A DNA stretch of 64,000 nt from Candidatus Thorarchaeota archaeon (lineage in GTDB: Archaea > Asgardarchaeota > Thorarchaeia > Thorarchaeales > Thorarchaeaceae). A program made the translations under genes and the position numbers. Below, piece after piece: positions 37,991-57,275 of the stretch (positions are counted from its first letter, which is position 1; each line of letters starts with the position of its first letter). Under the pieces are notes generated by a model, which did no database searches, had not been told where the DNA came from, and saw only the letters and a program-made list of their open reading frames with translations. Location of the stretch: assembly GCA_019057475.1 (NCBI GenBank), contig DXJO01000022.1, forward strand, positions 1 through 64,000, read 5' to 3'.

Positions 37991-40900
37991 ATGACAGAGG
38001 AAACGGCTGGTACAGAGGAAATGCAATTGCCGTTTCCACATGGTATCGAGGTTGAACTCCAGGTCATCATGAGAGATGGAAACTGGTTCCGCGGGGAGGA
38101 GATCCTGGAAGTATTCGATAGGCTGGTGTCCAGCGCGAAGAACCTGCTTGACAAGAGGATTAGAGCGGCAAGTGTGCCCTCAGTTAGAAGCAAGTATAGG
38201 CACTCATCGCAAACTGAGGAAGGTGAGCGTGGTTCCAGAATCGTAGTGAATTACGAGGACCCAGCAGGGGAGGCAAAGGAATACACCATTATCGGCCATG
38301 ACCCGAATGTCACGAGCCTGACGTGGATACTCGAAGTGGCAACACCCCCATGCACAACACTAGAAGAACTTGCCTGGTGGGTTCAGACACTCATCGCAAT
38401 CTCATATGATGCTCTACCCAAGGACATGTATGTGCTGCTCATTTCAACTGGCCTGAATCCCACTCAGGAATACATGAGGAATCTCTCATTTGGAGAACAT
38501 CATCATATCCTCAGTCCCGAGATCGAAGAGAGTTCACGCCTCGCGGTCTACAATATGATCCGAAACTTCACTCCTCATCTAATTGCGTTGTCCGTGAATT
38601 CCCCATTTGAAAACAAGAAGTCCACAGACGAGGTCTATATCGACTCAGAAGGAAGAACACGCGCTCCAAGATGCAAGAGATCAATCAGACTTCTCAAGAA
38701 CACCACACAGATGGGACCCACAAATAAATTCGAGCTCATACCATACATGAAGAAACCAGACAAGGAATTCTTTGCAAAGCATGTTAATCGTAGCTTCGCA
38801 AGAATGGTAGATATGTACCCGTTCACGGATTATGGTACAATAGAAGTAAGAGTCTTTGACACACAGTTATCAGTCCCTCGAAGGGTCGGTATCGCCTTGA
38901 TCTTGCAGGCGCTCGCCCTGAAGGCGATACGACTGTCCGCGAAAGGTGTGCCTATTCCAGATATGGGCGCCAAGTCGATTGCTGCCAACAGGGCTTCTGC
39001 TGTTGCGGCCGGTCTATGGGGACCGTTCCATCCGGGAGAGGACAGTAAGAATCTGGAGTTCATAGAGATCTACAACCATCCAATTAACGATGATGGAACA
39101 TTGGACAATACACGGCGAAATCGATTCATGGGAGATGCTGTTGCTTCGATGCTCTATCTCATCAGAGATGAGCTCGAAGACATGAGAGCGATTGATAACC
39201 CATTCATGCAGCCCTTGATGGTTTCGGTGTTTGGGAGCGAGTTCGTGGAGCCGAGAACTACATGTGCAGACTACCAGCTTGATGTCTACGCGAAATCAGA
39301 ACAAAACATGGTCACATTACTTGGACGCCTAGGAAGTATCACTAGGGAATGCTGTACCAATTGGCTTTACGACCCGCTGGAAGGAGTCCCACGACTTCCA
39401 ACCTGGCTTTGTTGGTGGAAGGGTCTCGAGCCGGAGATCATAACTGATAAGGAGAGGATCTTCGCGGGTCAAGAAGCAGGATTCGACTTATCTATCCGAA
39501 ATCGAACCGACCGAGACCTTCACAATCTCACTGTATCCTACAGGATAGAAGATTCTGAAAGAAATGTCATAGAACAGAACATCCTGCCAATCTCAAGAAT
39601 CGAATCAGGCGAGATTCATGTCGCTCGGATCACATTCCCAACTAAGCGTCAGGTCCATGCCTACAACATCATTGCATCAATCGGTGTCGCTGGCAAGGAA
39701 ATCAACCTGAGAAGCACTATCAATACATACTGGATGACAGCAAGCGTCAAGCCTGCTACAACCACACAGTTTGCCGATAGCAGGACTCCAATCCTGTTTT
39801 CTGGTGAGATAGACACGAACTACCCCACAAGGACTACAGTCACTTGCGAGATTGCAGTGATTAGCCCAAAGAAAGAAACTGTCATTGCCAATGTGTACTA
39901 CCCTGTTGTCGTTGAGGGAGGAGACCTTCTCTTCTTTGAGTCGTCTGACCTGCCACCTCTGGTAGTATCTGCAGAAGCCTCCAAAGGGGTCGAAAGATGC
40001 GTTCTGCGAATTAGATTGATTGATCATGATAAGAGTACAATCGCACTTAGCACGTCGAAGCCCTTCTACATTGGTTTTGTAAGACGAGGCCCAGAAATAA
40101 CCATCCAAGCGAATCTCAAAGGAACACACAGTCCTGGGGGGATTCTTCAAGGCGAGGTGGTGCTCAAAGCCGGACAACACGAAATGCCTAAGGGTTCAAG
40201 ATTGATTGTTCATTACAAGACAGATACAGGGGACACGCACGTAGTAGCGGAGGCCGATGCTTGGGAAGCTGTATCGAGCCCGCTCAAATTCGATTGGCAG
40301 ATTCCGCCAGCAGATCCGGGAATGCTGGCGCGAAGAACTGCGTCCATCCGAGCATCACTGGTTTCCAATGGAATGGAGATTGCATCGAGTGAATCTGATG
40401 CCTTCATAGTGGCTCATGTCGAGGTCAGAACCAGCATTGATTCGCTGAAGGCGCCAGACAGATCCCAGATAGGCGGCATGGTGGCAGGTTGGCTCAGAAT
40501 AAGACGCAACACGGAACAGGGAGAGCCTGCCACTTTGACTATGTCTTTGCGATTCACAGATGATGACGAACACATTGTCTTGAATCAAGCTGTCAAGCAA
40601 AGCAGGAACCTGTCTCTTGCGTATGGGCCATTTACCATACCTGAACCGAGAACGAAGAATGTGCCGTCAAGCGTCACTCTTGTGGCCAAGCTAGACTATG
40701 CAAATGCTCAGATGGACTGCAAGACAGCAGAAATATCGCTTGTCGCCATGGATGAAACCAGACCTGCTAGTCTGAACTTCAGCGGAGTCCCAACATATGT
40801 TTCTCCTGATGACCAAGTTCATGCTGCGATTCACGTCACCAACTCATCTGCTGAAGCTATGAAAGGAATGCTGTCGGTGCGTCTTGAGTCGGTAATTGGA

Positions 40901-41428
40901 ACGGAGGAAGTATTCATTCGGGAGATTGATCTAGCGGCTGAGGAAACTCGCGTCTTCGCGATTCCTGTGAGAATACCTTTGAGTGCGGAAATGAGCACAG
41001 CGCATCTGAAAGCAGCCTTGCGTCTGGAAACCATGCTTCTGGAAAAAAGGCATAGATTCAAGGTGAAAGCGATTGAAGAACCACTCTTTCATGTGCGTTT
41101 CTCCATCAAGGATGACAGGGGCCAGGAGATACCGGGCCTTGTTCCGCGTGAGTCAAATATCGTGATTGGGGTTCATGTTCAGGTCGTTAAGCGAGGTTTG
41201 GAAAACTTGATGGTTTCTCTGCGCGTGATGTCCAAAAGAGAAGTGGTAAGGGAATTCCGAATGCCGATCCCCGAATCTGAAACTGCGTTCAAGTCTGAGG
41301 TTCGTTGGACCACCCCCAAGTTGGAAACCATAACGGGGTACTACTTGGATGCAGCAATCATTCACGGAGAGATATCATTGCCTACGCGCGCGGTTAAATG
41401 CGAAAAGAAGACCTTCGCGGTATACTAG
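37991..41428 (+). CDS. GCS2/YbdK-family carboxylate-amine ligase fused to multiple Ig-like beta-sandwich domains
   Basis: HGIEVELQ, LEVATPPC, GLNP, FGEHHHI, ALSVNSPF, YGTIEVRVFDTQ; about 650 aa beta-rich C-terminus. Confidence 0.85.
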   Translation: MTEETAGTEEMQLPFPHGIEVELQVIMRDGNWFRGEEILEVFDRLVSSAKNLLDKRIRAASVPSVRSKYRHSSQTEEGERGSRIVVNYEDPAGEAKEYTIIGHDPNVTSLTWILEVATPPCTTLEELAWWVQTLIAISYDALPKDMYVLLISTGLNPTQEYMRNLSFGEHHHILSPEIEESSRLAVYNMIRNFTPHLIALSVNSPFENKKSTDEVYIDSEGRTRAPRCKRSIRLLKNTTQMGPTNKFELIPYMKKPDKEFFAKHVNRSFARMVDMYPFTDYGTIEVRVFDTQLSVPRRVGIALILQALALKAIRLSAKGVPIPDMGAKSIAANRASAVAAGLWGPFHPGEDSKNLEFIEIYNHPINDDGTLDNTRRNRFMGDAVASMLYLIRDELEDMRAIDNPFMQPLMVSVFGSEFVEPRTTCADYQLDVYAKSEQNMVTLLGRLGSITRECCTNWLYDPLEGVPRLPTWLCWWKGLEPEIITDKERIFAGQEAGFDLSIRNRTDRDLHNLTVSYRIEDSERNVIEQNILPISRIESGEIHVARITFPTKRQVHAYNIIASIGVAGKEINLRSTINTYWMTASVKPATTTQFADSRTPILFSGEIDTNYPTRTTVTCEIAVISPKKETVIANVYYPVVVEGGDLLFFESSDLPPLVVSAEASKGVERCVLRIRLIDHDKSTIALSTSKPFYIGFVRRGPEITIQANLKGTHSPGGILQGEVVLKAGQHEMPKGSRLIVHYKTDTGDTHVVAEADAWEAVSSPLKFDWQIPPADPGMLARRTASIRASLVSNGMEIASSESDAFIVAHVEVRTSIDSLKAPDRSQIGGMVAGWLRIRRNTEQGEPATLTMSLRFTDDDEHIVLNQAVKQSRNLSLAYGPFTIPEPRTKNVPSSVTLVAKLDYANAQMDCKTAEISLVAMDETRPASLNFSGVPTYVSPDDQVHAAIHVTNSSAEAMKGMLSVRLESVIGTEEVFIREIDLAAEETRVFAIPVRIPLSAEMSTAHLKAALRLETMLLEKRHRFKVKAIEEPLFHVRFSIKDDRGQEIPGLVPRESNIVIGVHVQVVKRGLENLMVSLRVMSKREVVREFRMPIPESETAFKSEVRWTTPKLETITGYYLDAAIIHGEISLPTRAVKCEKKTFAVY

Positions 41429-44438: not shown

Positions 44439-44759
44439 CCTTCTCCTACTTGGGCGTTTAGCCTCATAAAGATGCAGGCTTGTGGCACTGCACAAATTGC
44501 CATGGAATTGGAACCCTGCTATGATTGAGAGCCTGCATTGTTGGTAGCCTGCAGAAGAACTGAAGTGCGACCTTTCCCCCGGAATGACCCGTGTCTATTC
44601 TTTCCTCTCATTAGGAGAAAACCCATTCCCGCCGAAATGGCGCCGTGATAAACGAAACTTCATATGGATTCGCGCGATAGAATCACTAGGGAATGGGGGG
44701 TTAAACCCGCTTCCGTGGTTGAATCACACGTAGAGTGTGTGGATAGGAGAAATAAGAAA

Positions 44760-45590
44760 TTGCAAATAGATTTAATGATGTTCACATTCGCGATTGTACT
44801 ACTCGCGTTCTTTGCGTTGATGTTCATCGCAAGCGGCATTAAGGTGCTGAAAGAATGGGAGAGAGTAGCCATACTCAGACTTGGCAAGTTCAAGCACATC
44901 AAGGGGCCTGGAATTATTTTCGTTGTGCCAATGCTTGATAAGATTGCAATGAAGGTCTCTCTCAGGCTTCTGACCTACGCTTTCAAGACTGAACGGTCTT
45001 TGACAAAAGACAATGTTCCGGTCGTCGTTGATGCGGTGATGTACTTCCGTGTCATAGATGTGGAGAAGGCGATTCTGACCGTCGAGAGATACGCTGTGGC
45101 GGTCGAACTCGCGGCACAGACCACGTTACGAGAAACTATCGGCAAAATCACTCTTGACGAGCTGCTCTCTGAGAGAGATCAGATTGCAGAGCACATGCAG
45201 GAACTCATCGACGAGAAAACTGAGCATTGGGGAGTTAAAGTAACAGCGGTAGAGATTCGTGATGTCGTCATCCCGTCGGCACTGCAGGACGCAATGAGCA
45301 GAGAGGCACAGGCTGAGAGGGAGCGCAGAGCGCGAGTCACACTAGCTACGGCCGAGCTCGAGGCTTCCGAGAATATGCTTCAGGCGGCCAAGAAGTACGA
45401 GCAGTCTGAGGTTGGCTTGGTTCTGCGGACTTGGAATATTATGCAAGAAATATCCAAGAACGCCAACCTGATTATCATGGTGCCAGCCACAATACCGGAG
45501 GTTGGATTGACAGCTGCTACAGCGGTAGCGTTGAGCGCTGGAACCGGTGGCATAAAGATGCCGAAGGACAAGGGGATGGTGCAGAAATAG
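44760..45590 (+). CDS. SPFH/band-7 (stomatin/slipin) protein
   Basis: ERVAILRLG, LTKDNV, AQTTLR, WGVKVTAVEI, QAERERRA. Confidence 0.93.
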   Translation: MQIDLMMFTFAIVLLAFFALMFIASGIKVLKEWERVAILRLGKFKHIKGPGIIFVVPMLDKIAMKVSLRLLTYAFKTERSLTKDNVPVVVDAVMYFRVIDVEKAILTVERYAVAVELAAQTTLRETIGKITLDELLSERDQIAEHMQELIDEKTEHWGVKVTAVEIRDVVIPSALQDAMSREAQAERERRARVTLATAELEASENMLQAAKKYEQSEVGLVLRTWNIMQEISKNANLIIMVPATIPEVGLTAATAVALSAGTGGIKMPKDKGMVQK

Positions 45591-45612
45591 ACACGGTCTG
45601 TGTCATAATGAG

Positions 45613-46326
45613 GTGGACAAGATAGACGCTTGGATTAAGATATTCATCGTGCTTGTGATGCTGTCAGCGTTGAGCTTGGTCGTAGGATATATGATCCACG
45701 ACCCATTCGTGGGATTGATTCTCCTAGCGGTCATCCTCACTCTCTTAGTTGTCACAGTCGAGCCGGCCACTGGAAAGGCGATGGCACAGGTGACGATTCC
45801 TATCGTCATCATTCTGTTTGTATTCCAGATCGTTCTGAACCCATCCTTCCAATTTGAGATCTGGATGCTGATCGTCGTAGGGGCAATCCTCTACTTGATG
45901 TTCACTCTCTTCACTGGAGGAGGCGCGCTCGAGGGGAGTCTGATTGATGCGAAGATGTCGCTGAAACTGTTTCCGATTTACGGCTTAGCGATATTGCTAG
46001 CGTCAATCGCAGATCCGTCGAACAGAACAACTGCCATCATGATGGCCGTTACTATCGGGGGGATGATGGTGCTCTACTGGGTATTCCTGAGGGACTACGA
46101 AGAGTGGCCAGAGGTCACCTATGGACCCACCAGTGTGATTGCTCTGACGGATTTGAATCCGCGAGGCAAGGTGAAGACGGGAGCCGAAGTTTGGTGGGCA
46201 AAGGCCACAGACCCCCCGATACAGGCAGGAGAGCGTGTCATGTTTCGGGGAGTCAGCGGGCTCACGATGGTCGTTTCAAGGTACAAAGACGATCAGGACT
46301 CAGAACACGAGTCAACCAACGATTAG
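45613..46326 (+). CDS. NfeD-like membrane protein
   Basis: TM segments + C-terminal OB domain (DLNPRGKVKTGAEVWWA...IQAGERV...GLTMVV); adjacent to SPFH gene. Confidence 0.85.
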   Translation: MDKIDAWIKIFIVLVMLSALSLVVGYMIHDPFVGLILLAVILTLLVVTVEPATGKAMAQVTIPIVIILFVFQIVLNPSFQFEIWMLIVVGAILYLMFTLFTGGGALEGSLIDAKMSLKLFPIYGLAILLASIADPSNRTTAIMMAVTIGGMMVLYWVFLRDYEEWPEVTYGPTSVIALTDLNPRGKVKTGAEVWWAKATDPPIQAGERVMFRGVSGLTMVVSRYKDDQDSEHESTND

Positions 46327-46351
46327 ATTGTGGGGTCGGCTAACCCGACCC

Positions 46352-47167
46352 TCAACCTCTTTTTTCTTGGCCCCGTTTTAGAATGAGCCAGATGATAGAC
46401 AGTCCGAATAGAAAACCCAATACCGTTGTTATGCCCCACTCGATTTGGAATATCTCAGGGCTAATGACAGGCTCTCTTGGATAGACTGGGAAGGCGATAA
46501 AGACAACGATATTCCACGCGAAGTGAAACCCAATAGGCACCCAAAGCCGTTCATTGGAATAGTAGTAGCCCAGACTCAGCACTGCACCGCCCACGAAGAG
46601 ATTGAGCGTGAAAAGTATGACTAGATGAAGCGGGACGGATCCAAGAGGCGTCCACCAAGAGAAATGAAGAAGCGCAAAGACTAGAGAGCTAATTGCTATG
46701 CCCTTGCCTCGTCCCCAGAGCTCGACCATTCGAGGCATCATATAGCCACGATAGCAGAGCTCCTCAAAGTAGGAAACCGGAATGGCGATGATAATCACTG
46801 ATAGTACAAGTTCTTCCGCAAACGACGATGGAGATGCGACTTGACCTCCAAAGGCGAAAGCTATTAAAAAAACTAGAGCGGCTGCTGCGCCTCCAGCAAT
46901 TCCCCCAACGATTAGATGTGGCCAGGTATTCTTGTCGGTTTCGAGGCCCAGCTCTGTAACAGAATCGCCTCCTTCCTGCTTCACGAATTGAAGTACTGTA
47001 AGGAACTTGAGAGGGAATGTCATCCAGGACAATAGGCTACGCACTGATTCGTACTCTTCGGTACCCAGAAAGAGTGCAGACAGCACGTGAGGCATTTCTG
47101 CAAGTAGAAGCATCAGAAGGCAGAACAGAATGATTCGCGCTACTTTGTCAGTTCGTTCTTCAGACAT
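46352..47167 (-). CDS. CPBP/Abi (Rce1-like) intramembrane metalloprotease
   Basis: FEELCYRG, FALLH, PIGFHFAWN. Confidence 0.9.
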   Translation of the reverse strand: MSEERTDKVARIILFCLLMLLLAEMPHVLSALFLGTEEYESVRSLLSWMTFPLKFLTVLQFVKQEGGDSVTELGLETDKNTWPHLIVGGIAGGAAAALVFLIAFAFGGQVASPSSFAEELVLSVIIIAIPVSYFEELCYRGYMMPRMVELWGRGKGIAISSLVFALLHFSWWTPLGSVPLHLVILFTLNLFVGGAVLSLGYYYSNERLWVPIGFHFAWNIVVFIAFPVYPREPVISPEIFQIEWGITTVLGFLFGLSIIWLILKRGQEKRG

Positions 47168-48598: not shown

Positions 48599-49894
48599 CT
48601 ATCCAGATCCCCGAATCACAACTGCGAACTCACTTGCTAGTTTACCATACCATTCTAGCAGGTCACGCATATTATCTACATGACGATAGATTCCGTTCCC
48701 ATACTGGGAGATGGCTAGCATCAGTTCTTCGTCAATTTCGCTGCGCTCTCCTAGTCCAATGCAATAGATGACCAAATTGACAGCCTCAGTGAAGCGCTCC
48801 TTCAACACTTTTAGTGGCGGGGGTCCAGATGTTGTCATTCCATCAGTAAGCAATATCAACATGGTTGGTTTCTTGGTATCGTCAAAAGCCTCGAGAATCT
48901 CGTGCGCTTTTATCAACGCGGAGCCCATGTCGGTCAGAGTGCCACCTTCTTCAACTTTGTCTACTACGTGAGTGCTGATTATCTGAAGGCCAAGTGCCTT
49001 TTCTCGGCCCGTGCATTCCACAAAAGGCTGAACTTCGCCTGTGTCGGAGCTGAGAAATGTCATCTCACTCACTTCCTTCTCGAAAGTAATGATACCAACC
49101 TTCTCACCATAACCCCTGCCGACTTTCTCAGCTAGGTATAGGAGGATAGCCATCGCAGCTGCTTCGGCACGGCTGACCATACTGCCCTCTTCAAACCGGT
49201 CAAGGAATGCCTGAACTTCCGGGTTATCACCCGCGAGGTCCTTCAGACCCTCCCGGGCATGCGCTATATCCTGAACTGGAACATCGGTGGTCTTCATTGA
49301 TCCACTAGTGTCAATACATAGTATTGCGTTGAAGGGTGTGGCTATGCCAACTGTCTTGAACTCATACCCGGTCTTCTCTCTCAATGCTTCAAAGGCAAGC
49401 TTTGCGAAGCTTTTCCCGGATAACAGCGGTCTGACATTCATTATCTCTACATTCGCATTCATCTCGGGCCAATTGAATGACATCCCCGGATAGACAAGCC
49501 GACCATCAATAATTTTCTCAAGAGACTTTACTCTTTCAGCTGCACGGGTGACCAAGTCATCTGTGTTGGCGTCTTCTGTAAGTGGCTTCAGACCGAACTC
49601 CACGTACTCTAGAGCTGTCATATCCTTATCATAGAGCGTTACTTCAACCATATCCGATTCCATAAGCAATGAAGCTTCCAGAATCAGTGTGTCAATCACA
49701 ATTTGGTCCGGAGGAACGTCCTTGCTCTTCCTAATCTCTGCAGCTCCCCAAAATGCAGATTGAGAGTCTTCAAAAACGACGATAGATCCCATCTCTGCGT
49801 TCAAAGCTTTAGCAGTCTTAGGATGAAGATTGGCGTAGCCTCTTAGGTCGCCACCGTCAACGATTTCAAGTTTCGCCTTCTTAGTGATGGCAAT
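48599..49894 (-). CDS. CDC48-N-like (double-psi barrel) + VWA domain protein; probable non-canonical start
   Basis: MIDAS IDTSGSM, GGTLTDMG, LLTDG, IGLG; frame open 30 codons beyond TTG 49804 (..GDLRGYANLHPKTAKALNAEMG). Confidence 0.8.
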   Translation of the reverse strand: MAITKKAKLEIVDGGDLRGYANLHPKTAKALNAEMGSIVVFEDSQSAFWGAAEIRKSKDVPPDQIVIDTLILEASLLMESDMVEVTLYDKDMTALEYVEFGLKPLTEDANTDDLVTRAAERVKSLEKIIDGRLVYPGMSFNWPEMNANVEIMNVRPLLSGKSFAKLAFEALREKTGYEFKTVGIATPFNAILCIDTSGSMKTTDVPVQDIAHAREGLKDLAGDNPEVQAFLDRFEEGSMVSRAEAAAMAILLYLAEKVGRGYGEKVGIITFEKEVSEMTFLSSDTGEVQPFVECTGREKALGLQIISTHVVDKVEEGGTLTDMGSALIKAHEILEAFDDTKKPTMLILLTDGMTTSGPPPLKVLKERFTEAVNLVIYCIGLGERSEIDEELMLAISQYGNGIYRHVDNMRDLLEWYGKLASEFAVVIRGSG

Positions 49895-49950
49895 AGCCTC
49901 CGCTACAAGTTTCCCGTCCTCATTTTATAAAGAATTGTGAGGTACTAAGG

Positions 49951-51450
49951 TCATCCAAGCATGGACTCAATCGCAGATGTGAATTCTTTGGGGGTTGAAA
50001 AGAGCTTCGAGTTGCTTGTCAGGTCAGTTGAGAGAATGGGGTGCTTCTTCTGTTGCGCCAACTCAGTAGAGAGCATAGTGGCCTTTTCGTAGTCGTTCAG
50101 GATGATGCAACTAATCATGTCATTGGGGTGCGATTTCACCCAGACTATGAATTCACGCGCATCATCTCGCGTTCGTAATGTCATGAAGTAGGAATCAAAG
50201 TATATGCCGTTGTCGCCCCCCGCAGACATCGGCCGCAGGTCAGGCCATGTCCTTTTGGGGGGCAGCATGTAGTCCACAGAGGCGAGATTTAGTGCACCCT
50301 CTGCTATCTTTGCGATAAGGCTAGTTTCCAATACTGAACGTGCAGACTTTTTCTTCTGTGTGCATGTTAGCATTTGGGGGTTCTCATGAGCCATACGCTT
50401 TGTTCGGAATGGCGTTCCAACGAGGGACAATGCGTTGCCTCCAAGGATCCTCTGAATGTCACTGAGAGACCCCAAGAAATCCCTAGATAGAAGGTGTAAA
50501 ATCACATCGGCGGCTTGGACTGAGAGAAAGCTGTAGTCCGTGCCGAAAAGAAATTTCTCTGACCAATGAAAACCGGCATTTGCCAGCATATCGGTGGCTG
50601 TGCGAAACAGAACAGGAACATCCTGATCATGAAGGGTTGAGGTTTCTCCATAGATGACAGGGTCTCTCAGCAGCTCGTGGAAATGGGGGTCTCCAGGACT
50701 CATCCCGCAATGAGCCAAAATAATTTTCAAACCTTTCATTGCTTTTGCATACTTTTGCTCGTTTCGCATGGCTTCGACCATGGCATGTATCCGTCGCGCC
50801 GTTTTTACGTTCCGAGTGTCGAATATAATTGGAACCTTCAGCTCGCCAGCCTTTCTCACGACACGTAGAGTCATTTCATCTTCGATTTCTTCAACGAAAA
50901 GCTGTGCTACCGGATGCAGCTTAAGACCCCTAAGTCCGAGCTTTGTTACTGCGCGATTAAGCTCTCGGACTGCTGCGGTTCTAGACCTCAGAAAGTCTTT
51001 TGGGTCAACTCTTGCGAAACCAATCAGCCGAGTTGAGTGAGGAGCACGAGTGGTCCATCCCGCGATTTTATCATTTGATACCTTGAAGGAAGCCCCCTTG
51101 CCTTCCTCTAGGTAGTCATCTGTGAAGGGAAAGACAATGGTTCTGTCTACAAGCCATCCATGATTAAGTCGCGCCCAACTCTTCCGACTGGAGAAACATT
51201 TGGAGGGTAGGTTGGAAGGCACCACATCCACGGGTTCGAACAAGAGTGCATCACTCTCTTTCAGGTCCTTGACCATGCGCTGCATTTCAAACCAGAGCAG
51301 AGCGTAAAACTCGTACGCGCCAGGAGGTGTGTTTGTGTGTCCTTTCTCGCGACCCATATGGTGATGCGCGTCTACGATATACAGCCTGAACTTCTGTCCC
51401 TTCTTGATGCCTTTCTCAGGCTGGTCCTCAATCGCTCGAACTACGAGCAT
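49951..51450 (-). CDS. Metal-dependent amidohydrolase (amidohydro_2 TIM barrel) with C-terminal extra domain
   Basis: VDAHHH, GLKLHP, ILAHCG, FLFGTDY, ILGGNA. Confidence 0.88.
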   Translation of the reverse strand: MLVVRAIEDQPEKGIKKGQKFRLYIVDAHHHMGREKGHTNTPPGAYEFYALLWFEMQRMVKDLKESDALLFEPVDVVPSNLPSKCFSSRKSWARLNHGWLVDRTIVFPFTDDYLEEGKGASFKVSNDKIAGWTTRAPHSTRLIGFARVDPKDFLRSRTAAVRELNRAVTKLGLRGLKLHPVAQLFVEEIEDEMTLRVVRKAGELKVPIIFDTRNVKTARRIHAMVEAMRNEQKYAKAMKGLKIILAHCGMSPGDPHFHELLRDPVIYGETSTLHDQDVPVLFRTATDMLANAGFHWSEKFLFGTDYSFLSVQAADVILHLLSRDFLGSLSDIQRILGGNALSLVGTPFRTKRMAHENPQMLTCTQKKKSARSVLETSLIAKIAEGALNLASVDYMLPPKRTWPDLRPMSAGGDNGIYFDSYFMTLRTRDDAREFIVWVKSHPNDMISCIILNDYEKATMLSTELAQQKKHPILSTDLTSNSKLFSTPKEFTSAIESMLG

Positions 51451-51563
51451 GTGTTCTTCGCTCCTCTAGGTAGGAGATACATCAAATGCTCGACATAAAC
51501 CATTGCGTGAGATACATTCATCTGATATTTCATCTTGGAAGACGTGACACGAGGTAAGACTCG

Positions 51564-54227
51564 ATGCTTGTGGCTGAAGACATTGCGGCAAACGAGATAA
51601 GACGGTTCTTTGTAGTGGACGCGTCACTTCATCTCGGGTCAGTTAGAGTCGGCACGACTCTCAGCACATTCGACCCCGCAAGAGCCTTTACATACTTTGG
51701 CGCTCTTGAGAATCAATTGATAGAATACGCGTCCCGCTTCTCCGAGTCATTCCAATACATTCCACGGCGAGCTTATAGCTACTTGAAGCATCCGCCTATC
51801 CTCTCAAGCTTGTGCCAGAGCACGCTAGAGGAACCTGAGTCCAGCTGGTTGGTCGACCAATTCTTGACATGTCCACTCATCAGTGTGGGACATACATCAC
51901 TTCCTAAAGCAGAACAGATGAAAAACACAAAGTCGATTCAGGAATGGTCCATGGGCCCCCCGTATGGTCCCAGATTGTACCATATCCAGGATATGCGTCA
52001 CGGACGTCACACCCGCTCCGGTTGGGGGTGCATAATGAAAGCTGCCGACCTCGGGCAACGCATGGAGGAAACGAATCTCAACGACCTTGATGGTTATATC
52101 CAGATGGGGCATCCAGTATTTGTGGAAATGGATGAGCCGGATGACATTGACATTGTATTGAAATGGCTCATTACCCTAAAGGAAGCAGGACACAAAAGAC
52201 CATCATTGCTGCTTGATCCAAGAGCTCACAAGGATTGGAACGCAGGAATCACAAGGCTAGTTGATATCCCAAGGAGCAGGATTCTGACTTCAGGAGCCAC
52301 TATCTCATCGCTCTCGACCCTTGTGCGGCACCTCAGGAAAACCAGCATAGAAGCAGATTGGTCATCAAGACTAGTTTTCGCCACCCGTTATCCTGAAACA
52401 CAGAGCGGAGATGGCGTTTCAGAGATTCTAAGCTATCTACTGAGTAAGAACCTGGCGGCCAGTCCACAAGAACTCCAGAGAGTGCTTGGTGGGAACATCT
52501 TGTCCATGATGCCTCCAAGACCGTCGTTCCTTTCTTATGCTGATAATGACTCTGCAGTTGTTGCAGAGGGACACCTAGGCAAGGCATCGCTAAACGAGAT
52601 TGCGCGCATCCTCCGATTGGTGGTTGGTCGCAGACTTCAGAGCGTCGCTTCGGTTGATTACATGATCGGAAATGATGGAGGAGTCGTGCACCTAGATGGC
52701 GCATTGGTAACTCTCACGACACCATCGACGAATACAGCTACTAGTATGGCAATAATCCTCGAGAGGAATGGTTCCTTGAAGCTCGTAGGATGGAAGCGTA
52801 CATTCACAGATACACTGCATACTAGGAACAGCGAGGCATTTTCCACACTTGCTAGATCAATAGCAATGTCAGATGGACTCATTTTGAGTTCTCCCTCCCA
52901 AATGACGCGGTTCGACCAAGCTGTGATGAGCTGCTTGCAAGTTAAGAACCCGCAGGAAATCTTGTCGGCTCTGCATTTCCAAATGGACATTGCTGACTAT
53001 GAACAGGGAGCGATTCTCGTTTCTCCTGACGATATGCGCGCGCTCAACGTCAGCGAGGGGGACCATTTGCTTGTGCTTGACACCGCAACAACCCGATGGT
53101 GGATCGGCAAGGCTGTGATGGACGAAGAACACCCGAGGAAGCGGATAGGAATCTCTTCGCAAGATGCGATGCTTGGGGGTTTCACTGAATCAAGAAATGT
53201 TGACCTCGCCAAAACTGAAAGGAAGGTAGTCAATCTTGGCGAAACGGTCCTTTCATTTGACAATGCGGATGGCCCCCCAAATGGAGAAACCTCTGCATCA
53301 TTGCATCTCCGAACTGATACTGTCAGAAGGATGTTGCATAATAGGTTCGTTGGCAAAGGTATGAAGTTCAGTATTGGAAACGGAGGGCACGAAATCTGCC
53401 TTACGTTCGCGCAATCCAGCCCCAGACTAGATCCGAGCCAGATCGGTCGCATGAATGGCGCGTCGATTCGATTCCAACCGTCCCAATCACTCAGGGAGTT
53501 CAATGTGATTATCAGTGTTTCAGCAGATCAGAATATGCGAATACGAGACATCACGCTAAAATCAAAGTACTCGATCCAATCTAGGCTCGAACCATTAGTA
53601 GAGAGGGTCCCAGAGCTAGGAGCCTTCTTGAGTGGCCTTGGTGACACAATTACAAGAGCTGAGCTAGCCGCCCTGTTTTCGTTACTTGTCGTGAGCACAA
53701 TTGCGGACAATCGCACTGGAGGGCGTCTAGGTATTGTCACAGTCACTGTTCCAGCTCAGAAGTTTTCTGTTCAGAAGAGAGGTGTTGTCCAGTCATTTGT
53801 GGAATTTCGGGAGGACCTATCTTCCGAGGAAGTCCTGATTTCCATGGTCTATTCAATACTTGATACCTTGCGACAATCCGTGCAAGCGGTCAGCATAGCA
53901 GATGGTTACAGAGCCGTTGCAGAAATGTTGGAGGATTTCGGTCCTGAACGACCGACCCTAGTGATGATTCTTGGAAGTGATGTGGATGATGACCATGGAA
54001 GACCCTTCCTTCGAGCGATAGCTGAAAGCGAGAGGTGTTTGTTTGACTTCATGGGACTTGGTATGACTTTTGATGAGAAGAAAGCGCTGCAAGTGTTTGA
54101 CGGTATTGTCGGAGGAGTCTACCCAATCACTTCATTCTCAACACGCGCCTTTGACGACTATCTACTTGGGGCAATCGACCACGTTGTGCCAATCGTTGAA
54201 GAGCCAGAATTTAAGGGAAATCAATAG
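51564..54227 (+). CDS. Fusion of degenerate amidohydrolase + CDC48-N-like + degenerate VWA (pseudoenzyme paralog of both neighbours)
   Basis: VDASLH, VFATRYP, VLGGNI, ASVDYM; ILVSPDDMRALNVSEGD; FNVIISVSADQNM, TRAELAA, PTLVMILGSD. Confidence 0.8.
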   Translation: MLVAEDIAANEIRRFFVVDASLHLGSVRVGTTLSTFDPARAFTYFGALENQLIEYASRFSESFQYIPRRAYSYLKHPPILSSLCQSTLEEPESSWLVDQFLTCPLISVGHTSLPKAEQMKNTKSIQEWSMGPPYGPRLYHIQDMRHGRHTRSGWGCIMKAADLGQRMEETNLNDLDGYIQMGHPVFVEMDEPDDIDIVLKWLITLKEAGHKRPSLLLDPRAHKDWNAGITRLVDIPRSRILTSGATISSLSTLVRHLRKTSIEADWSSRLVFATRYPETQSGDGVSEILSYLLSKNLAASPQELQRVLGGNILSMMPPRPSFLSYADNDSAVVAEGHLGKASLNEIARILRLVVGRRLQSVASVDYMIGNDGGVVHLDGALVTLTTPSTNTATSMAIILERNGSLKLVGWKRTFTDTLHTRNSEAFSTLARSIAMSDGLILSSPSQMTRFDQAVMSCLQVKNPQEILSALHFQMDIADYEQGAILVSPDDMRALNVSEGDHLLVLDTATTRWWIGKAVMDEEHPRKRIGISSQDAMLGGFTESRNVDLAKTERKVVNLGETVLSFDNADGPPNGETSASLHLRTDTVRRMLHNRFVGKGMKFSIGNGGHEICLTFAQSSPRLDPSQIGRMNGASIRFQPSQSLREFNVIISVSADQNMRIRDITLKSKYSIQSRLEPLVERVPELGAFLSGLGDTITRAELAALFSLLVVSTIADNRTGGRLGIVTVTVPAQKFSVQKRGVVQSFVEFREDLSSEEVLISMVYSILDTLRQSVQAVSIADGYRAVAEMLEDFGPERPTLVMILGSDVDDDHGRPFLRAIAESERCLFDFMGLGMTFDEKKALQVFDGIVGGVYPITSFSTRAFDDYLLGAIDHVVPIVEEPEFKGNQ

Positions 54228-54504
54228 CATCAGAAATCGCGGCGAGTCTAGTTTCGAAGGATTGTGTTTTGCGCTCCAGTTTTTCCAGAGTCATGCGAAC
54301 TCCTTCTATTAGGGTAACCAGATTCGATAACGTTCCAGTGCCAGATTCGGATACCCCCCTCATGTGCACCTTCAAATGATTGTCTAGATCCTTAGTAACT
54401 AGAAACACCCTACCTGCAATCTCTTCAAGTGCTCTCAACCGATCTGCAGTCTGTTCCATCTGGTCAACCAATTCACTCAGATCTCCATCAGCCACATGAA
54501 TCAC
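54211..54504 (-). CDS. Small coiled-coil protein
   Basis: Heptad pattern; 4-nt overlap with upstream gene. Confidence 0.7.
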   Translation of the reverse strand: MIHVADGDLSELVDQMEQTADRLRALEEIAGRVFLVTKDLDNHLKVHMRGVSESGTGTLSNLVTLIEGVRMTLEKLERKTQSFETRLAAISDAIDFP

Positions 54505-54803
54505 CCTTGCAGATGGTCGTCGGTTTGCGCCAGTGCGCGCTCAAGAGTTTCCAGCCGCTTTGATAGACTTTCAAGACGCTCTACGACTTCGCTGAGTCTG
54601 ATGTCTATTTGACTTGATACAGACGCCTCGTGCCGTTCAGTCGTGTCTAGTGATGGGCGCACCTGAGGTTCGCCTGATAGCTTAGCTAGTCCATCTTCTA
54701 GGTCCGCCACAGTTTGGAGAAGGTCTGGAATGGACACTTTGTCGAGTCGTTTGTTAATCAAGATAAGTGCACGTTCGATCTTCTCAAGCTTGCGCGCGCT
54801 CAA
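54501..54803 (-). CDS. Small coiled-coil protein
   Basis: Heptad pattern; GGAGG SD before TTG. Confidence 0.7.
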   Translation of the reverse strand: MSARKLEKIERALILINKRLDKVSIPDLLQTVADLEDGLAKLSGEPQVRPSLDTTERHEASVSSQIDIRLSEVVERLESLSKRLETLERALAQTDDHLQG

Positions 54804-54817
54804 ACAGATGCCTCCAT

Positions 54818-55981
54818 TCAGTATAGTCGTGTCTTGTAGATTTCATGTGCTAATGGTTTGGAACCATACAGAACCTCTACTCTAATGTTAGCTTTTCCTT
54901 TCTCATCCGACATTGGTACAAGCTTCAGCGTAATCTTCTGATCAGACCTGGGACCGACCTCATGCTTTTCATTGGTGACCTCAGACACTGAATCACCAAC
55001 GACAATTGAAACGATAACCCGAATTCCAACAGTGACTTGACTTGGGTTGACAATCCTGATTCGGTAATTAAACGCTTTGCCCCCAACAAGTGCATCAGGC
55101 ACCGCTCCGAGGTCCACAGACAACCCTAGATGGTCAGATGTCAGAGGTCGTCCCTTTGGCCATCTTGTGATTCGCCCCAGCTCTTGTAGTCTTGAAAGCG
55201 ATGTTTTGAGAACCCTCAACTCCAGGCCAAGCTCTTCTGCAGCTTCAGCCAGATCAAAGCTCCCATCATGGCGTTCATAAAACAAGAGGATGCGTCTGTC
55301 CTCCTCAATGAGATCGCCAACACTCTCAAGAATCTCCAAGATTGCTTCAGGCAGTTCATCAGCCTCACGAAGAGAGAAGTATCTTCCACTTTCTACGAAT
55401 TCTGCAATGCTTCTAAACGACGTTTCCACCAGGGGATTGCAGCCACATACAAACGGAAAGAATGTGGTACCGAAGTTGTCCTTCATGGCCTTAAGCTCAG
55501 CCTTTGGATCATAGCCCTTGGGACATCCATCGGGAAAGTAATCGTCACCTAGTGAATTGTAGTCCGTTCCATGTGGCGGCGCATCGCCCACTAGGAGGAG
55601 AACTTTGTACGCATCATTCGACCATGAAAGCTTTGTGCGGGCATCGAACAGTCCATCTGCCACAGCCTCAGGAGTATCACCACCTTCGGATGGCTTCAGG
55701 TCAGATATCTGGCGATGCACCTTTTTCATTTGGTCAGTGAAGTCAAAGACGCGTGTCACGTAGGTGCGGTCTTGAGGGGGATGATCCCTGTACGATACTA
55801 TTCCGAACCGAATTCTCAGGTCTTTGGTGCGAGTCACAACCTTATCCACGATGTCGAAGAGACTATCCTTGACTGCGCGGATGTCATCCTTCATGCTTCC
55901 TGTGGTATCAACTACAAAGGCAACGTCCAGCTTCGCAGGGGGCACCCCTATCGTCTCCTGCCGGACGAGAGAATTAGCCAC
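54818..55981 (-). CDS. VWA + winged-helix + Ig-like domain protein
   Basis: VVDTTGSM, YRDH, GGDTPEA, VGDAPPHG; DLAEAAEELG...LSRLQELGRI; beta-rich C-terminus. Confidence 0.85.
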   Translation of the reverse strand: MANSLVRQETIGVPPAKLDVAFVVDTTGSMKDDIRAVKDSLFDIVDKVVTRTKDLRIRFGIVSYRDHPPQDRTYVTRVFDFTDQMKKVHRQISDLKPSEGGDTPEAVADGLFDARTKLSWSNDAYKVLLLVGDAPPHGTDYNSLGDDYFPDGCPKGYDPKAELKAMKDNFGTTFFPFVCGCNPLVETSFRSIAEFVESGRYFSLREADELPEAILEILESVGDLIEEDRRILLFYERHDGSFDLAEAAEELGLELRVLKTSLSRLQELGRITRWPKGRPLTSDHLGLSVDLGAVPDALVGGKAFNYRIRIVNPSQVTVGIRVIVSIVVGDSVSEVTNEKHEVGPRSDQKITLKLVPMSDEKGKANIRVEVLYGSKPLAHEIYKTRLY

Positions 55982-56445: not shown

Positions 56446-56997
56446 TCAAATTCGTTGTAGATTCCTAATGATCTCCTCATTCTCGTCAGGCGTTTTGACT
56501 GTTGGATCAACGGTCATTCCAGGTTCGTGGGTTTCAATCAGAACCTCCATTCCAGAGTCCTTGACTTTCTTGAACCCGTTGCTAGATAGCGCCCGAACTG
56601 TAAGATGAGTCGTATTGAATTCAGTCCTGGCGAGGGTTTCCACTGTTCGCAATTCTCTTCGCAACTTCGATCTAGTCATGCGAACTTGCTCTTTGAGCTC
56701 AGCAACTTGGACTTGCAATTCCCTACGTTGACTATGCTCAGTTTCAAGCCGCAACTTCAAATCGGCATAATCAGCCTTTGGGATGTAATCCTTTGTCCGG
56801 TCAATCCAAGTGACTGTTGTGCCATCGAACCGCCTTTTTGTAGCCACAAGATCCAGTGCATTCAAGATCGCGATGACATCATACACCCTTCGCTTTGGAG
56901 CGTTCAACATGTCGGCCAGAATGTCACTGCGAACCCCCTCGGTTCCGCTCGCCTTCAAGAGCCTAATTGACTCTTTTGCCAGTTCAACCAGCTTCAC
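56446..56997 (-). CDS. E2F/DP-like winged-helix transcription factor with coiled coil
   Basis: KRRVYDVIAILNALDLV...VTWI matches the E2F/DP RRxYD signature; GTG start at 56997 with GGGGTG SD. Confidence 0.8.
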   Translation of the reverse strand: MKLVELAKESIRLLKASGTEGVRSDILADMLNAPKRRVYDVIAILNALDLVATKRRFDGTTVTWIDRTKDYIPKADYADLKLRLETEHSQRRELQVQVAELKEQVRMTRSKLRRELRTVETLARTEFNTTHLTVRALSSNGFKKVKDSGMEVLIETHEPGMTVDPTVKTPDENEEIIRNLQRI

Positions 56998-57275
56998 AAT
57001 CGCACCCCAAGAATGTGCCGGCGTATGGCGGCCTCCGAGCACACTCCCAGTGGGTTTCGGGTAGGAAGTATTTAGATGTTTGTGTTGTGTAGCGATTTTC
57101 CGATGGTTCTCACTGATAACCAAAGCTATTATTACTCGAATGATTCTGCGAAAAATCGCCGGGTAAAATGAGCGGTTTGTATGACCAATGAGCATCCAGG
57201 GTGAGGTGCCGTCAACACCCAAGATTATTTATCATGCATGCTTCGCACGAGCCACCAGTTCACACACATTGACAG

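Follow-up and report, generated by a model that had tools for sequence, protein, structure and literature searches.

The question raised by this locus is what keeps in an archaeal genome a long gene whose product aligns with both of its neighbours and lacks their catalytic residues. The window, that is, the whole stretch of 64,000 nucleotides analysed here from a Candidatus Thorarchaeota archaeon, holds on the minus strand the genes for a VWA-domain protein (P0001, 48599-49804, 401 aa as called from a TTG codon) and an Amidohydro_2 hydrolase (P0002, 49951-51450, 499 aa). Separated from this pair by 113 bp and transcribed divergently is a third gene (P0003, 51564-54227, plus strand, 887 aa), encoding a fused double pseudoenzyme with a dead amidohydrolase-like half and a half made up of a Cdc48N-like domain and a vWA domain without MIDAS. 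These three positions, reported in a first-pass annotation, agree with the ORF listing.

The in-order alignment of the 887-aa protein to both divergent neighbours, already described in that annotation, was borne out by BLASTP (amidohydrolase against fusion, 1e-9, with 0.009 for the N-terminus taken separately; vWA protein against fusion, 5e-11) and by hhalign. The pairwise profile alignments, one of the checks proposed at that stage, were significant, the amidohydrolase family matching the fusion family at 99.7% (E 1.5e-25; amidohydrolase 5-435 on fusion 3-393) and the Cdc48N-vWA family at 99.9% (E 1.7e-33; 4-415 on fusion 460-857), while the motif pairs originally quoted (e.g. VDAHHH to VDASLH, FGTDY to FATRY, ILGGNA to VLGGNI, SRAEAAA to TRAELAA) were all located in the sequences. 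Judged by these alignments, the similarity is far beyond chance, spans almost the entire length of both neighbours, and the N-terminal half of the fusion is homologous to the Amidohydro_2 family. Along the plus strand, the fusion comprises a degenerate TIM-barrel amidohydrolase-like domain without the HxH, His and Asp ligands (51564-52523, residues 1-320, delimited by hhalign); an alpha/beta domain corresponding to the last ~150 aa of the stand-alone hydrolase (52554-52967, residues 331-468; secondary structure taken from the AF2 model), recognized from an SVDYM block present in both, from BLASTP (266-386 against 296-427) and from hhalign up to residue 393; a two-lobed Cdc48/NSF-N-like domain (52968-53468, residues 469-635), which hhalign matches to the Cdc48N-vWA family's N domain; and a vWA fold whose MIDAS motif has been lost (53469-54197, residues 636-878). 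A protein atlas lookup gave no fold lead for the alpha/beta domain. The AF2 model of the fusion, poor in confidence and unreliable over residues 1-100 and of moderate confidence beyond, matched DEPDC5, p97/Cdc48 and NSF N-D1 in Foldseek, with 9xzy (DEPDC5/Iml1) as the top match at 1.3e-11.

Amidohydro_2 proteins are metal-dependent hydrolases and decarboxylases of the ACMSD and LigI type. The stand-alone neighbour scores 50.6 bits with Pfam PF04909 (E 3.1e-13), above the threshold of 26.4, and keeps all the superfamily ligands on its TIM barrel, namely HxH on strand 1, His, His, and Asp on strand 8; no variation occurs at D26, H28, H30, H180, D212, H246 and D304 among 15 Asgard relatives. The Asgard family differs from other members in carrying the extra ~150-aa C-terminal domain and in being remote in sequence from every solved structure (best PDB match by sequence, E 0.0055), whereas the fusion half differs in having no ligand and no Pfam match at all, only its distant copies P0052 and P0053 giving weak, sub-threshold Amidohydro_2 matches. 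In all 22 aligned fusion proteins the former ligand positions read DA-x-L-Q/H-LG, FASSYPET and C-I-S-x-x-x-x-M, and the same replacements are found in P0052 and P0053. In 22/22 members plus the two distant copies the HxH has become S/A-L-H/Q, the strand-8 Asp has been replaced by Ser (by Arg in the present genome) and nothing aligns with the Lys/His strand; in the vWA part DxSxS has given way to CIS-x-x-x-x-M, the T and D positions being changed as well. The claim that catalytic residues are missing thus holds in every relative examined, HxH/His/Asp and MIDAS being absent.

Such a protein might still be an enzyme that has acquired new catalytic residues in a remodelled pocket, as new invariant motifs (PRRAY.YLK.P, QDMR, GWGC, YPET..GD) are found in and around the old barrel, where Y276, P277 and T279 are invariant and E278 nearly so. 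Nevertheless, renewed catalysis seems very unlikely, given that the canonical ligands of both metal sites have all disappeared, that no catalytic family in Pfam or NCBIfam is matched and that the dN/dS of the fusion is above that of the active paralogues.

The loss of catalytic residues, together with the most relaxed selection among the three genes, could also be expected of a decaying duplicate in which stops have not yet been acquired, but this reading is effectively refuted. Intact full-length ORFs occur in 16 genera (29-93% identity) and, at ~20% identity, in two other families, the family alignment has 83 invariant columns, and in three within-genus comparisons dN/dS was 0.17, the hydrolase having 0.10-0.12 and the adaptor, as the VWA-domain protein will be called, 0.04-0.065. 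The fusion gene is therefore the most relaxed of the three, yet under purifying selection. A total of 48 full-length relatives (35-91% identity) were collected, and the gene was present in 69 of the 76 sampled genomes of the organism's own family (f1), in the single f2 genome and in 5 of 6 genomes of f19 (Freyarchaeia), that is, in the sister family and Freyarchaeia as well. The first-pass view of an intact and probably maintained ORF consequently stands, and the dN/dS and cross-Asgard co-occurrence analyses which it suggested place the gene as neither neutral nor unique to this genome.

A different outcome was obtained for the idea that P0003 is a fused copy of its present neighbours. In the trees of both halves, a branch with 99% SH-aLRT support separates every fusion half from every stand-alone sequence, and the AU test rejected an origin of the N half by duplication within Thorarchaeia (p 0.002, for a group defined after the tree had been inspected). 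The fusion branches are long, so that the grouping may in part reflect long-branch attraction. Since both halves branch outside all sampled stand-alone sequences, the fusion is an old paralogue, built from relatives of its two neighbours and not a copy of the latter.

The adaptor, a Cdc48N-vWA protein, keeps its MIDAS intact; its gene extends on the minus strand from 48599 to about 49894, P0001 being the part read from the TTG at 49804. The start at this TTG, as first adopted, had to be abandoned, for the frame is open and conserved over ~35 further codons upstream, to about 49894, with synonymous changes. No ATG, GTG or TTG exists in this extension; an ATC at 49888 is kept in four congeners, and a 431-aa ORF results when ATT is taken as the start, the orthologues being 425-442 aa long. 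The vWA fold is present (Pfam VWA_2, 2.4e-10 with the 401-aa protein), and the MIDAS residues D202, S204, S206, T328 and D358 are invariant, the window protein reading DTSGS. Pfam CDC48_N (PF02359) is matched by 9 of 15 adaptor relatives (best E 1e-8), P0055 reaching 16 bits where 35.1 are required. Adaptor-type proteins stop after the vWA domain, at 425-496 aa, and longer forms add only N-terminal barrels and proline-rich linkers. Unlike other MIDAS-type vWA proteins (CMG2, alpha2-delta, BatB, ITIH1, TFIIH p44, Rpn10), the adaptor has its vWA domain placed after a Cdc48-type N domain, counts no AAA+ partner within its gene set and has a fused counterpart in which the MIDAS site is lost.

In the first-pass view of the locus, a third core gene of the system, 7 kb upstream of the pair, had been missed. 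This gene (37991-41428, plus strand) encodes a 1145-aa carboxylate-amine ligase of the GCS2 family with a long beta-rich tail, unrelated to ATP-grasp; it matches the ligase adjoining the pair in L024 (BLASTP 3e-122, 30% identity, 1083 aa), Pfam GCS2 is found in its orthologues, and it was also recovered by neighbour clustering. All three genes of the trio are thus present in the window, and in other Asgard families the ligase lies directly beside the pair. In a phyletic survey of 301 sampled Asgard genomes, near-identical tallies were obtained for ligase, hydrolase and adaptor: 66-67/76 in f1, 1/1 each in f2, f6 and f28, 5/5 in f7, 61-62/68 in f9, 6/6 in f19, 15-16/21 in f22, 4-7/7 in f24 and 10-11/11 in f27, with none in the other 20 families of the sample. 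The three genes are adjacent at the f6, f7, f19, f22 and f27 loci, the conserved neighbours of the adaptor are the hydrolase and the GCS2 ligase, and the hydrolase and adaptor trees resolve the same sub-lineages. The trio is a co-inherited Asgard gene set. No paper describing this set or the architecture of the fusion was found in the literature, in agreement with the initial remark that no described system of this kind was known.

It is very probable that hydrolase and adaptor work within a single complex, given their common phyletic pattern, adjacency in five families, matching trees and predicted binding, all of which supports the one proposed at the outset. The model of the two proteins scored 0.68 (best of three controls, 0.00), a mark attained by 58 of 80 solved complexes as against 2 of 110 mismatched pairs, with at least 76% of the contacts common to the runs and a partner pLDDT of at least 80. 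In this heterodimer model the N domain of the adaptor lies against the TIM barrel on its catalytic side, and the hydrolase contacts flank H28/H30, H246 and D304.

Our preferred reading, to which a probability of roughly 55% is assigned, is that the fusion represents an inert, covalently linked version of the hydrolase-adaptor heterodimer, working as a non-catalytic binding protein and accessory of the ligase-hydrolase-vWA system. Copies of the hydrolase and adaptor genes were joined, in operon order, into one polypeptide, both metal sites were lost after the joining, and the product is retained under purifying selection in Thorarchaeia and Freyarchaeia. The fusion would probably still bind whatever the heterodimer binds, presumably the ligase's amide-linked product or target, and would not cleave it, serving instead as a non-enzymatic reader, protector or scaffold and as an accessory of the ligase system, not as an obligate subunit. 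VVDAxLQLG (former beta-1) and FASSYPETQxGD (former beta-8) are among the best conserved stretches of the fusion, a pattern which would fit a retained pocket. Residues mapped from the heterodimer interface were not significantly more conserved in the fusion (0.73 against 0.68, p 0.08; 0.55 against 0.56, p 0.6).

A tighter association was put forward in the first-pass annotation, where the dead copy figured as a heteromeric scaffold or inhibitor of its active neighbours. A stoichiometric partner of this kind would recall the MPN-/MPN+ pairs (e.g. Rpn8-Rpn11), in which an inactive paralogue is paired with an active enzyme, since here too a conserved dead paralogue is encoded next to an active one; the difference is that the dead fusion includes the adaptor and can exist without the active enzyme. 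The head-to-head layout over 113 bp, preserved throughout Thorarchaeaceae and the sister family, and the presence of the trio in 66 of the 69 fusion-bearing f1 genomes argue for such a partnership, as does the somewhat faster divergence of the fusion after trio loss. Nevertheless, three Thorarchaeota genomes that are 95-98% complete (G005, G016, G046) hold an intact fusion ORF of 862-886 aa and give no match to the hydrolase and adaptor queries, the ligase query finding nothing in the first two and no more than a truncated 708-aa frame in the third. In Freyarchaeia at least 12 kb lie between the fusion and any hydrolase-adaptor pair, and ~100 sampled genomes from seven Asgard families have the trio without the fusion. 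Because each occurs without the other, any coupling of fusion and trio is dispensable; an obligate partnership is contradicted and a stoichiometric one unlikely, while a looser functional tie is possible. In the trio-less G005 and G046, the fusions have diverged from their congeners by 10-14 identity points more than these congeners differ among themselves, against -3 to +11 points for the flanking HEAT, WHD and cobW genes, which may be taken as a weak hint of coupling.

The persistence of the fusion after trio loss could also point to a new role outside the ligase system, such as that of a soluble partner for the flanking membrane SPFH/protease genes. The gene order in Thorarchaeia is Band7-NfeD-Rce1-HEAT-(pair)-fusion, and in Freyarchaeia the fusion is immediately preceded by a Band_7 gene and immediately followed by a zf-AN1/Peptidase_M50 gene, so that a Band_7 gene accompanies it in two distant lineages. 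However, this neighbourhood may be merely inherited synteny, the HEAT neighbour is kept in genus g4, which is devoid of the fusion, and no fusion was found outside the trio-carrying lineages among the sampled Asgard genomes, all of which makes a role of this sort improbable.

As regards the system which the preferred reading assigns to the fusion, pupylation offers a working analogy. Its ligase PafA and its depupylase Dop belong to the carboxylate-amine-ligase superfamily, and in both cases an enzyme of this superfamily, an amide-cleaving enzyme (a putative one in the trio) and a binding adaptor travel together, a layout that would suit the writing and erasing of an amide mark. The trio differs in that its candidate eraser is a TIM-barrel amidohydrolase and not a homologue of the ligase, no Pup-like tag gene was identified with it and no proteasomal ATPase is linked to it.

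A second comparison concerns Iml1/DEPDC5 (SEACIT/GATOR1), in the front half of which an NSF/Cdc48-N-like domain precedes a Sec23-trunk/vWA-like one (PMC8534245), the same NTD-SABA order as in the adaptor. Iml1/DEPDC5 was the top Foldseek match of the whole adaptor model (8ae6_W, 8.3e-14), and the top seven matches (8ae6_W, 9xzy, 8adl_W, 9v0j_C, 9o5e_H, 9o5a_B, 8fw5_A) span ~430 columns, that is, the whole query. The likeness is non-exclusive, as p97, Cdc48 and NSF N-D1 come close behind at 1.8e-11 and weaker; identity is only 9-14% and global superposition poor (TM 0.25-0.28, rmsd 13-19 Å). The Pfam IML1 profile had no match in 15 adaptor members at E up to 1, and no DEPDC5/Iml1 chain appeared among the PDB sequence matches of the adaptor at E up to 10. 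Moreover, the adaptor is devoid of the SHEN, DEP and C-terminal domains and is partnered by a ligase and a hydrolase instead of longin proteins. It is doubtful that the Cdc48N-vWA module, in the adaptor and its MIDAS-less fused copy, is the archaeal ancestor of the NTD-SABA half of Iml1/DEPDC5. If this were true, a subunit of an amide-mark ligase/hydrolase system would have given rise to the scaffold of the eukaryotic GATOR1 nutrient sensor, and the dead fusion would illustrate how an enzyme partner becomes purely a scaffold.

No group is known to be more closely related to eukaryotes than the Asgard archaea, whose conserved gene sets without known function are therefore candidates for pre-eukaryotic machinery, to which the likeness between adaptor and DEPDC5/Iml1 would add an angle on eukaryogenesis if due to descent. 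In this context, the fusion is a clean case of a double pseudoenzyme long maintained by selection and a natural Rosetta stone, which points to hydrolase and Cdc48N-vWA adaptor as parts of a single working unit. The locus also offers a way into a system of ligase, hydrolase and adaptor by which an amide-linked modification may be written, erased and read.

The fusion gene (51564-54227, + strand), coding for an 887-aa protein with no match in Pfam and, like the rest of the region, gaining nothing from NCBIfam, is divergent from two minus-strand genes and separated from them by 113 bp. These encode a hydrolase of 499 aa (49951-51450; Pfam Amidohydro_2, 3.1e-13) and a Cdc48N-vWA protein, here called the adaptor, of 401 aa counted from a TTG start (48599-49804; Pfam VWA_2, 2.4e-10). 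The first-pass annotation had proposed that the fusion aligns in order with both neighbours, and this was borne out, every motif pair which it quoted being found in the sequences. BLASTP related the fusion to the hydrolase at 1e-9, with a further co-linear N-terminal segment at 0.009, and to the adaptor at 5e-11, while the alignment of family profiles with hhalign placed fusion residues 3-393 on amidohydrolase residues 5-435 (99.7%, E 1.5e-25) and residues 460-857 on adaptor residues 4-415 (99.9%, E 1.7e-33). On sequence comparison, the ordered paralogy of the fusion to both neighbours is unambiguous. A protein atlas search with the whole fusion as query returned vWA clusters only, at low scores, and such a search gave no usable match for the domain of about 150 aa which follows the hydrolase barrel.

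The loss of catalytic residues in both halves, which had been claimed for this genome, extends to the whole family. The metal-site residues D26, H28, H30, H180, D212, H246 and D304 are invariant in all 15 stand-alone amidohydrolases compared, from ten Asgard families, and the MIDAS residues D202, S204, S206, T328 and D358 are kept in 15 of 15 adaptors. The equivalent positions in 22 fusion proteins read DA-x-L-Q/H-LG, FASSYPET and C-I-S-x-x-x-x-M, and the distant fused forms P0052 and P0053 are likewise degenerate. Nevertheless, as had been supposed from its intact reading frame, this double pseudoenzyme is maintained. Public data hold 48 full-length relatives, with 35-91% identity, the named ones being nearly all from Thorarchaeota MAGs, and when 301 genomes were sampled evenly across the phylum, the fusion turned up in 69 of the 76 from Thorarchaeaceae (f1), the window's own family, in the single genome of its sister family (f2) and in 5 of 6 Freyarchaeia genomes (f19), a family which takes in the closed MAG CP147778.1. 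In three within-genus comparisons, dN/dS was 0.17 for the fusion, 0.10-0.12 for the hydrolase and 0.04-0.065 for the adaptor; the fusion is under purifying selection, although less tight than that on its active relatives.

The domain order of the fusion is that of the operon, hydrolase and then adaptor, and it had been regarded as a copy of its present neighbours. This part of the annotation did not hold, since in the trees of each half eight fusion sequences (from f1, f2 and f19) split from all stand-alone ones on a branch with 99% SH-aLRT, and a clade joining Thorarchaeia fusions with Thorarchaeia hydrolases was rejected by the AU test (p 0.002); these results are to be read with the long fusion branches in mind, and the group tested had been named after the tree was seen. 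Judged from these trees, the fusion is not a recent copy.

When the neighbours of the hydrolase-adaptor pair were clustered in other Asgard families, one further conserved gene emerged, in 11 loci, encoding a carboxylate-amine ligase (Pfam GCS2) of about 1000-1400 aa or, in some families, of about 570 aa beside a second ORF of about 600 aa. In f6, f7 and f19 the ligase gene and the hydrolase-adaptor operon converge directly; the ligase gene adjoins the hydrolase gene in f9, f24, f27 and f28, and sits between both genes in f22; the copy in the window (37991-41428, 1145 aa) matches that of f6 by BLASTP at 3e-122, with 30% identity over 1083 residues. Counted by family in the same 301 genomes, ligase, hydrolase and adaptor occur, in this order, in 66, 67 and 67 of 76 genomes of f1, in 61, 62 and 61 of 68 of f9, in 16, 15 and 16 of 21 of f22, in 4, 4 and 7 of 7 of f24, and in 11, 10 and 11 of 11 of f27; all three are present in every genome of f7 (5/5), f19 (6/6), f2, f6 and f28 (1/1 each), and none in the other 20 families. 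Moreover, the hydrolase and adaptor trees have sub-lineages in common, including two or three old pair-lineages found together in f7 and f19. Tallies and matching trees together establish that the real unit is a trio of ligase, hydrolase and adaptor, which is co-inherited. A literature search found no paper linking Asgard archaea with an amidohydrolase and vWA, nor any relevant one linking GCS2 with either.

In f9, f24 and f28, where the ligase is also divided between two ORFs, of about 570 and 600 aa, the adaptor is longer (664-764 aa; L032 4480-6645, L033 11837-14131, L034 9712-11769, L037 5467-7461), its Cdc48N-vWA core being preceded by a long proline-rich linker and, at the N-terminus, by one or two additional barrel-like domains.

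The dead copy had been proposed as a heteromeric partner of the active proteins. The trio occurs without any fusion in seven families, and an intact fusion of 862-886 aa is kept in three genomes (G005, G016 and G046, 95-98% complete) whose fusion locus has lost the pair together with the coiled-coil and vWA genes downstream; searches of the rest of these genomes found no hydrolase or adaptor. Fusion and trio are therefore separable, which leaves an obligate heteromer unsupported. Among high-quality genomes of the window's family, none has the trio without the fusion and four have neither. A weak sign of coupling may be read from sequence divergence, which seems faster where the trio was lost: the fusions of G005 and G046 share 37% and 40-44% identity with those of their congeners, compared with 50% and 54% among the congeners themselves, the differences for the flanking HEAT, WHD and cobW genes being -3 to +11 points. 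The HEAT-repeat neighbour was also considered as a partner of the fusion and rejected, since its gene persists in g4, a genus without the fusion. In G046, the ligase is represented only by a truncated frame of 708 aa (C27:82037-84124, L047), which covers query residues 3-693 at a distance of 7 kb from the intact fusion and looks like a decaying relic of the trio.

As regards structure, AF2 modelled the fusion with a mean pLDDT of 73.5 (poor for residues 1-100, good for 450-880) and a two-lobed N domain at residues 469-635, and the model of P0055, a full-length adaptor orthologue, reached a pLDDT of 87; Pfam CDC48_N matches 9 of 15 adaptor family members (best E 1e-8). The complex prediction, which took in hydrolase and adaptor, scored 0.68, with 0.00 for the best of three controls. 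Of 80 solved complexes 58 reach such a score, as do 2 of 110 mismatched pairs; these counts are only roughly valid here because the model was built from our own alignments. At least 76% of contacts are common to the runs, partner pLDDT is at least 80, and since we know of no like complex, it is unlikely that the score reproduces a known structure. On the hydrolase, the modelled contacts (32-54, 86-94, 123-134, 250-252, 271-279 and 307-311) lie around H28/H30, H246 and D304, that is, on the catalytic face of the barrel; on the adaptor they fall mainly in the N domain, with vWA residues 267-271 and 300-307 in addition. The model thus supports a predicted binding between both proteins; in the fusion, residues mapped from this interface gave no significant conservation signal.

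In a Foldseek search of the PDB with the adaptor model, the top seven matches were all Iml1/Sea1 or DEPDC5 (8ae6_W at 8.3e-14, 9xzy, 8adl_W, 9v0j_C, 9o5e_H, 9o5a_B and 8fw5_A), each spanning about 430 columns, the whole query, with Cdc48 and NSF N-D1 next, from 1.8e-11; with the fusion model as query, too, DEPDC5 came first. The NTD of DEPDC5 has been described as resembling the Sec18/NSF N domain, and its SABA as resembling a Sec23 domain (PMC8534245), which, together with these matches, indicates that the layout common to the adaptor and the front of DEPDC5 is real. Nevertheless, identity is only 9-14% and global TM 0.25-0.28, the adaptor lacks the later DEPDC5 domains, and its partners are of a different kind. 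The adaptor had no Pfam IML1 match, a PDB profile search gave no DEPDC5 chain, and in rigid-body alignment (VIA) DEPDC5 was not among the best 50 matches listed, all of them single vWA domains. The papers found on GATOR1 and Asgard archaea treat longin and NPRL2-like proteins only, describing NPRL2-like longins in Thorarchaeota and no DEPDC5 counterpart. A common origin of DEPDC5/Iml1 and the adaptor is possible.

The adaptor gene has about 35 conserved codons (49805-49917, - strand) upstream of its first canonical start, the TTG at 49804, and the N domain's first strand is encoded there. Four congeners keep this stretch, varying by synonymous changes, and in none of them does an ATG, GTG or TTG occur in frame; the ATC at 49888, which is in frame, is conserved and is preceded at about 30 nt by a TTTATAAAA box. 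Translation probably begins non-canonically, or else on a transcript that is leaderless or nearly so. A frameshift or assembly error, hinted at by an out-of-frame ATG at 49923, was rejected, since that ATG is missing in one of the four congeners and the conserved frame is start-less in each of them. A sigma-70 promoter scan, with a model not applicable to archaea, stayed at shuffle level.

Downstream of the fusion, other Thorarchaeota genera have a gene of 318-409 aa (L003 10946-11902; L001 12103-13332) with weak resemblance to the Cdc48N-vWA family (2e-6 to 6e-8). At this position the window's genus has only a 100-aa coiled-coil ORF (54501-54803, - strand) matching part of that gene (1.1e-7), which looks like a shortened extra paralogue. 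Just beyond lie genes for a third vWA protein (VWA_4/integrin-beta-like, 1e-13; 54818-55981, - strand) and for a winged-helix protein of E2F/DP type that carries a coiled coil (7e-8; 56446-57222, - strand), both syntenic across Thorarchaeia but absent from the loci which lost the pair. In Freyarchaeia CP147778.1, a Band_7/SPFH gene and a zf-AN1 plus Peptidase_M50 gene flank the fusion (L019 7350-8354 and 11331-12311), and in Thorarchaeia Band7-NfeD and an Rce1-like protease are encoded a few genes away (44664-47167 in the window); two distant lineages thus share the proximity of the fusion to an SPFH scaffold and an intramembrane protease.

We infer that the fusion would be an inert, covalently linked counterpart of the hydrolase-adaptor heterodimer, which may still bind the ligand of the latter and act as a reader, protector or scaffold. 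As for the trio system itself, its chemistry could possibly be that of reversible amide tagging.
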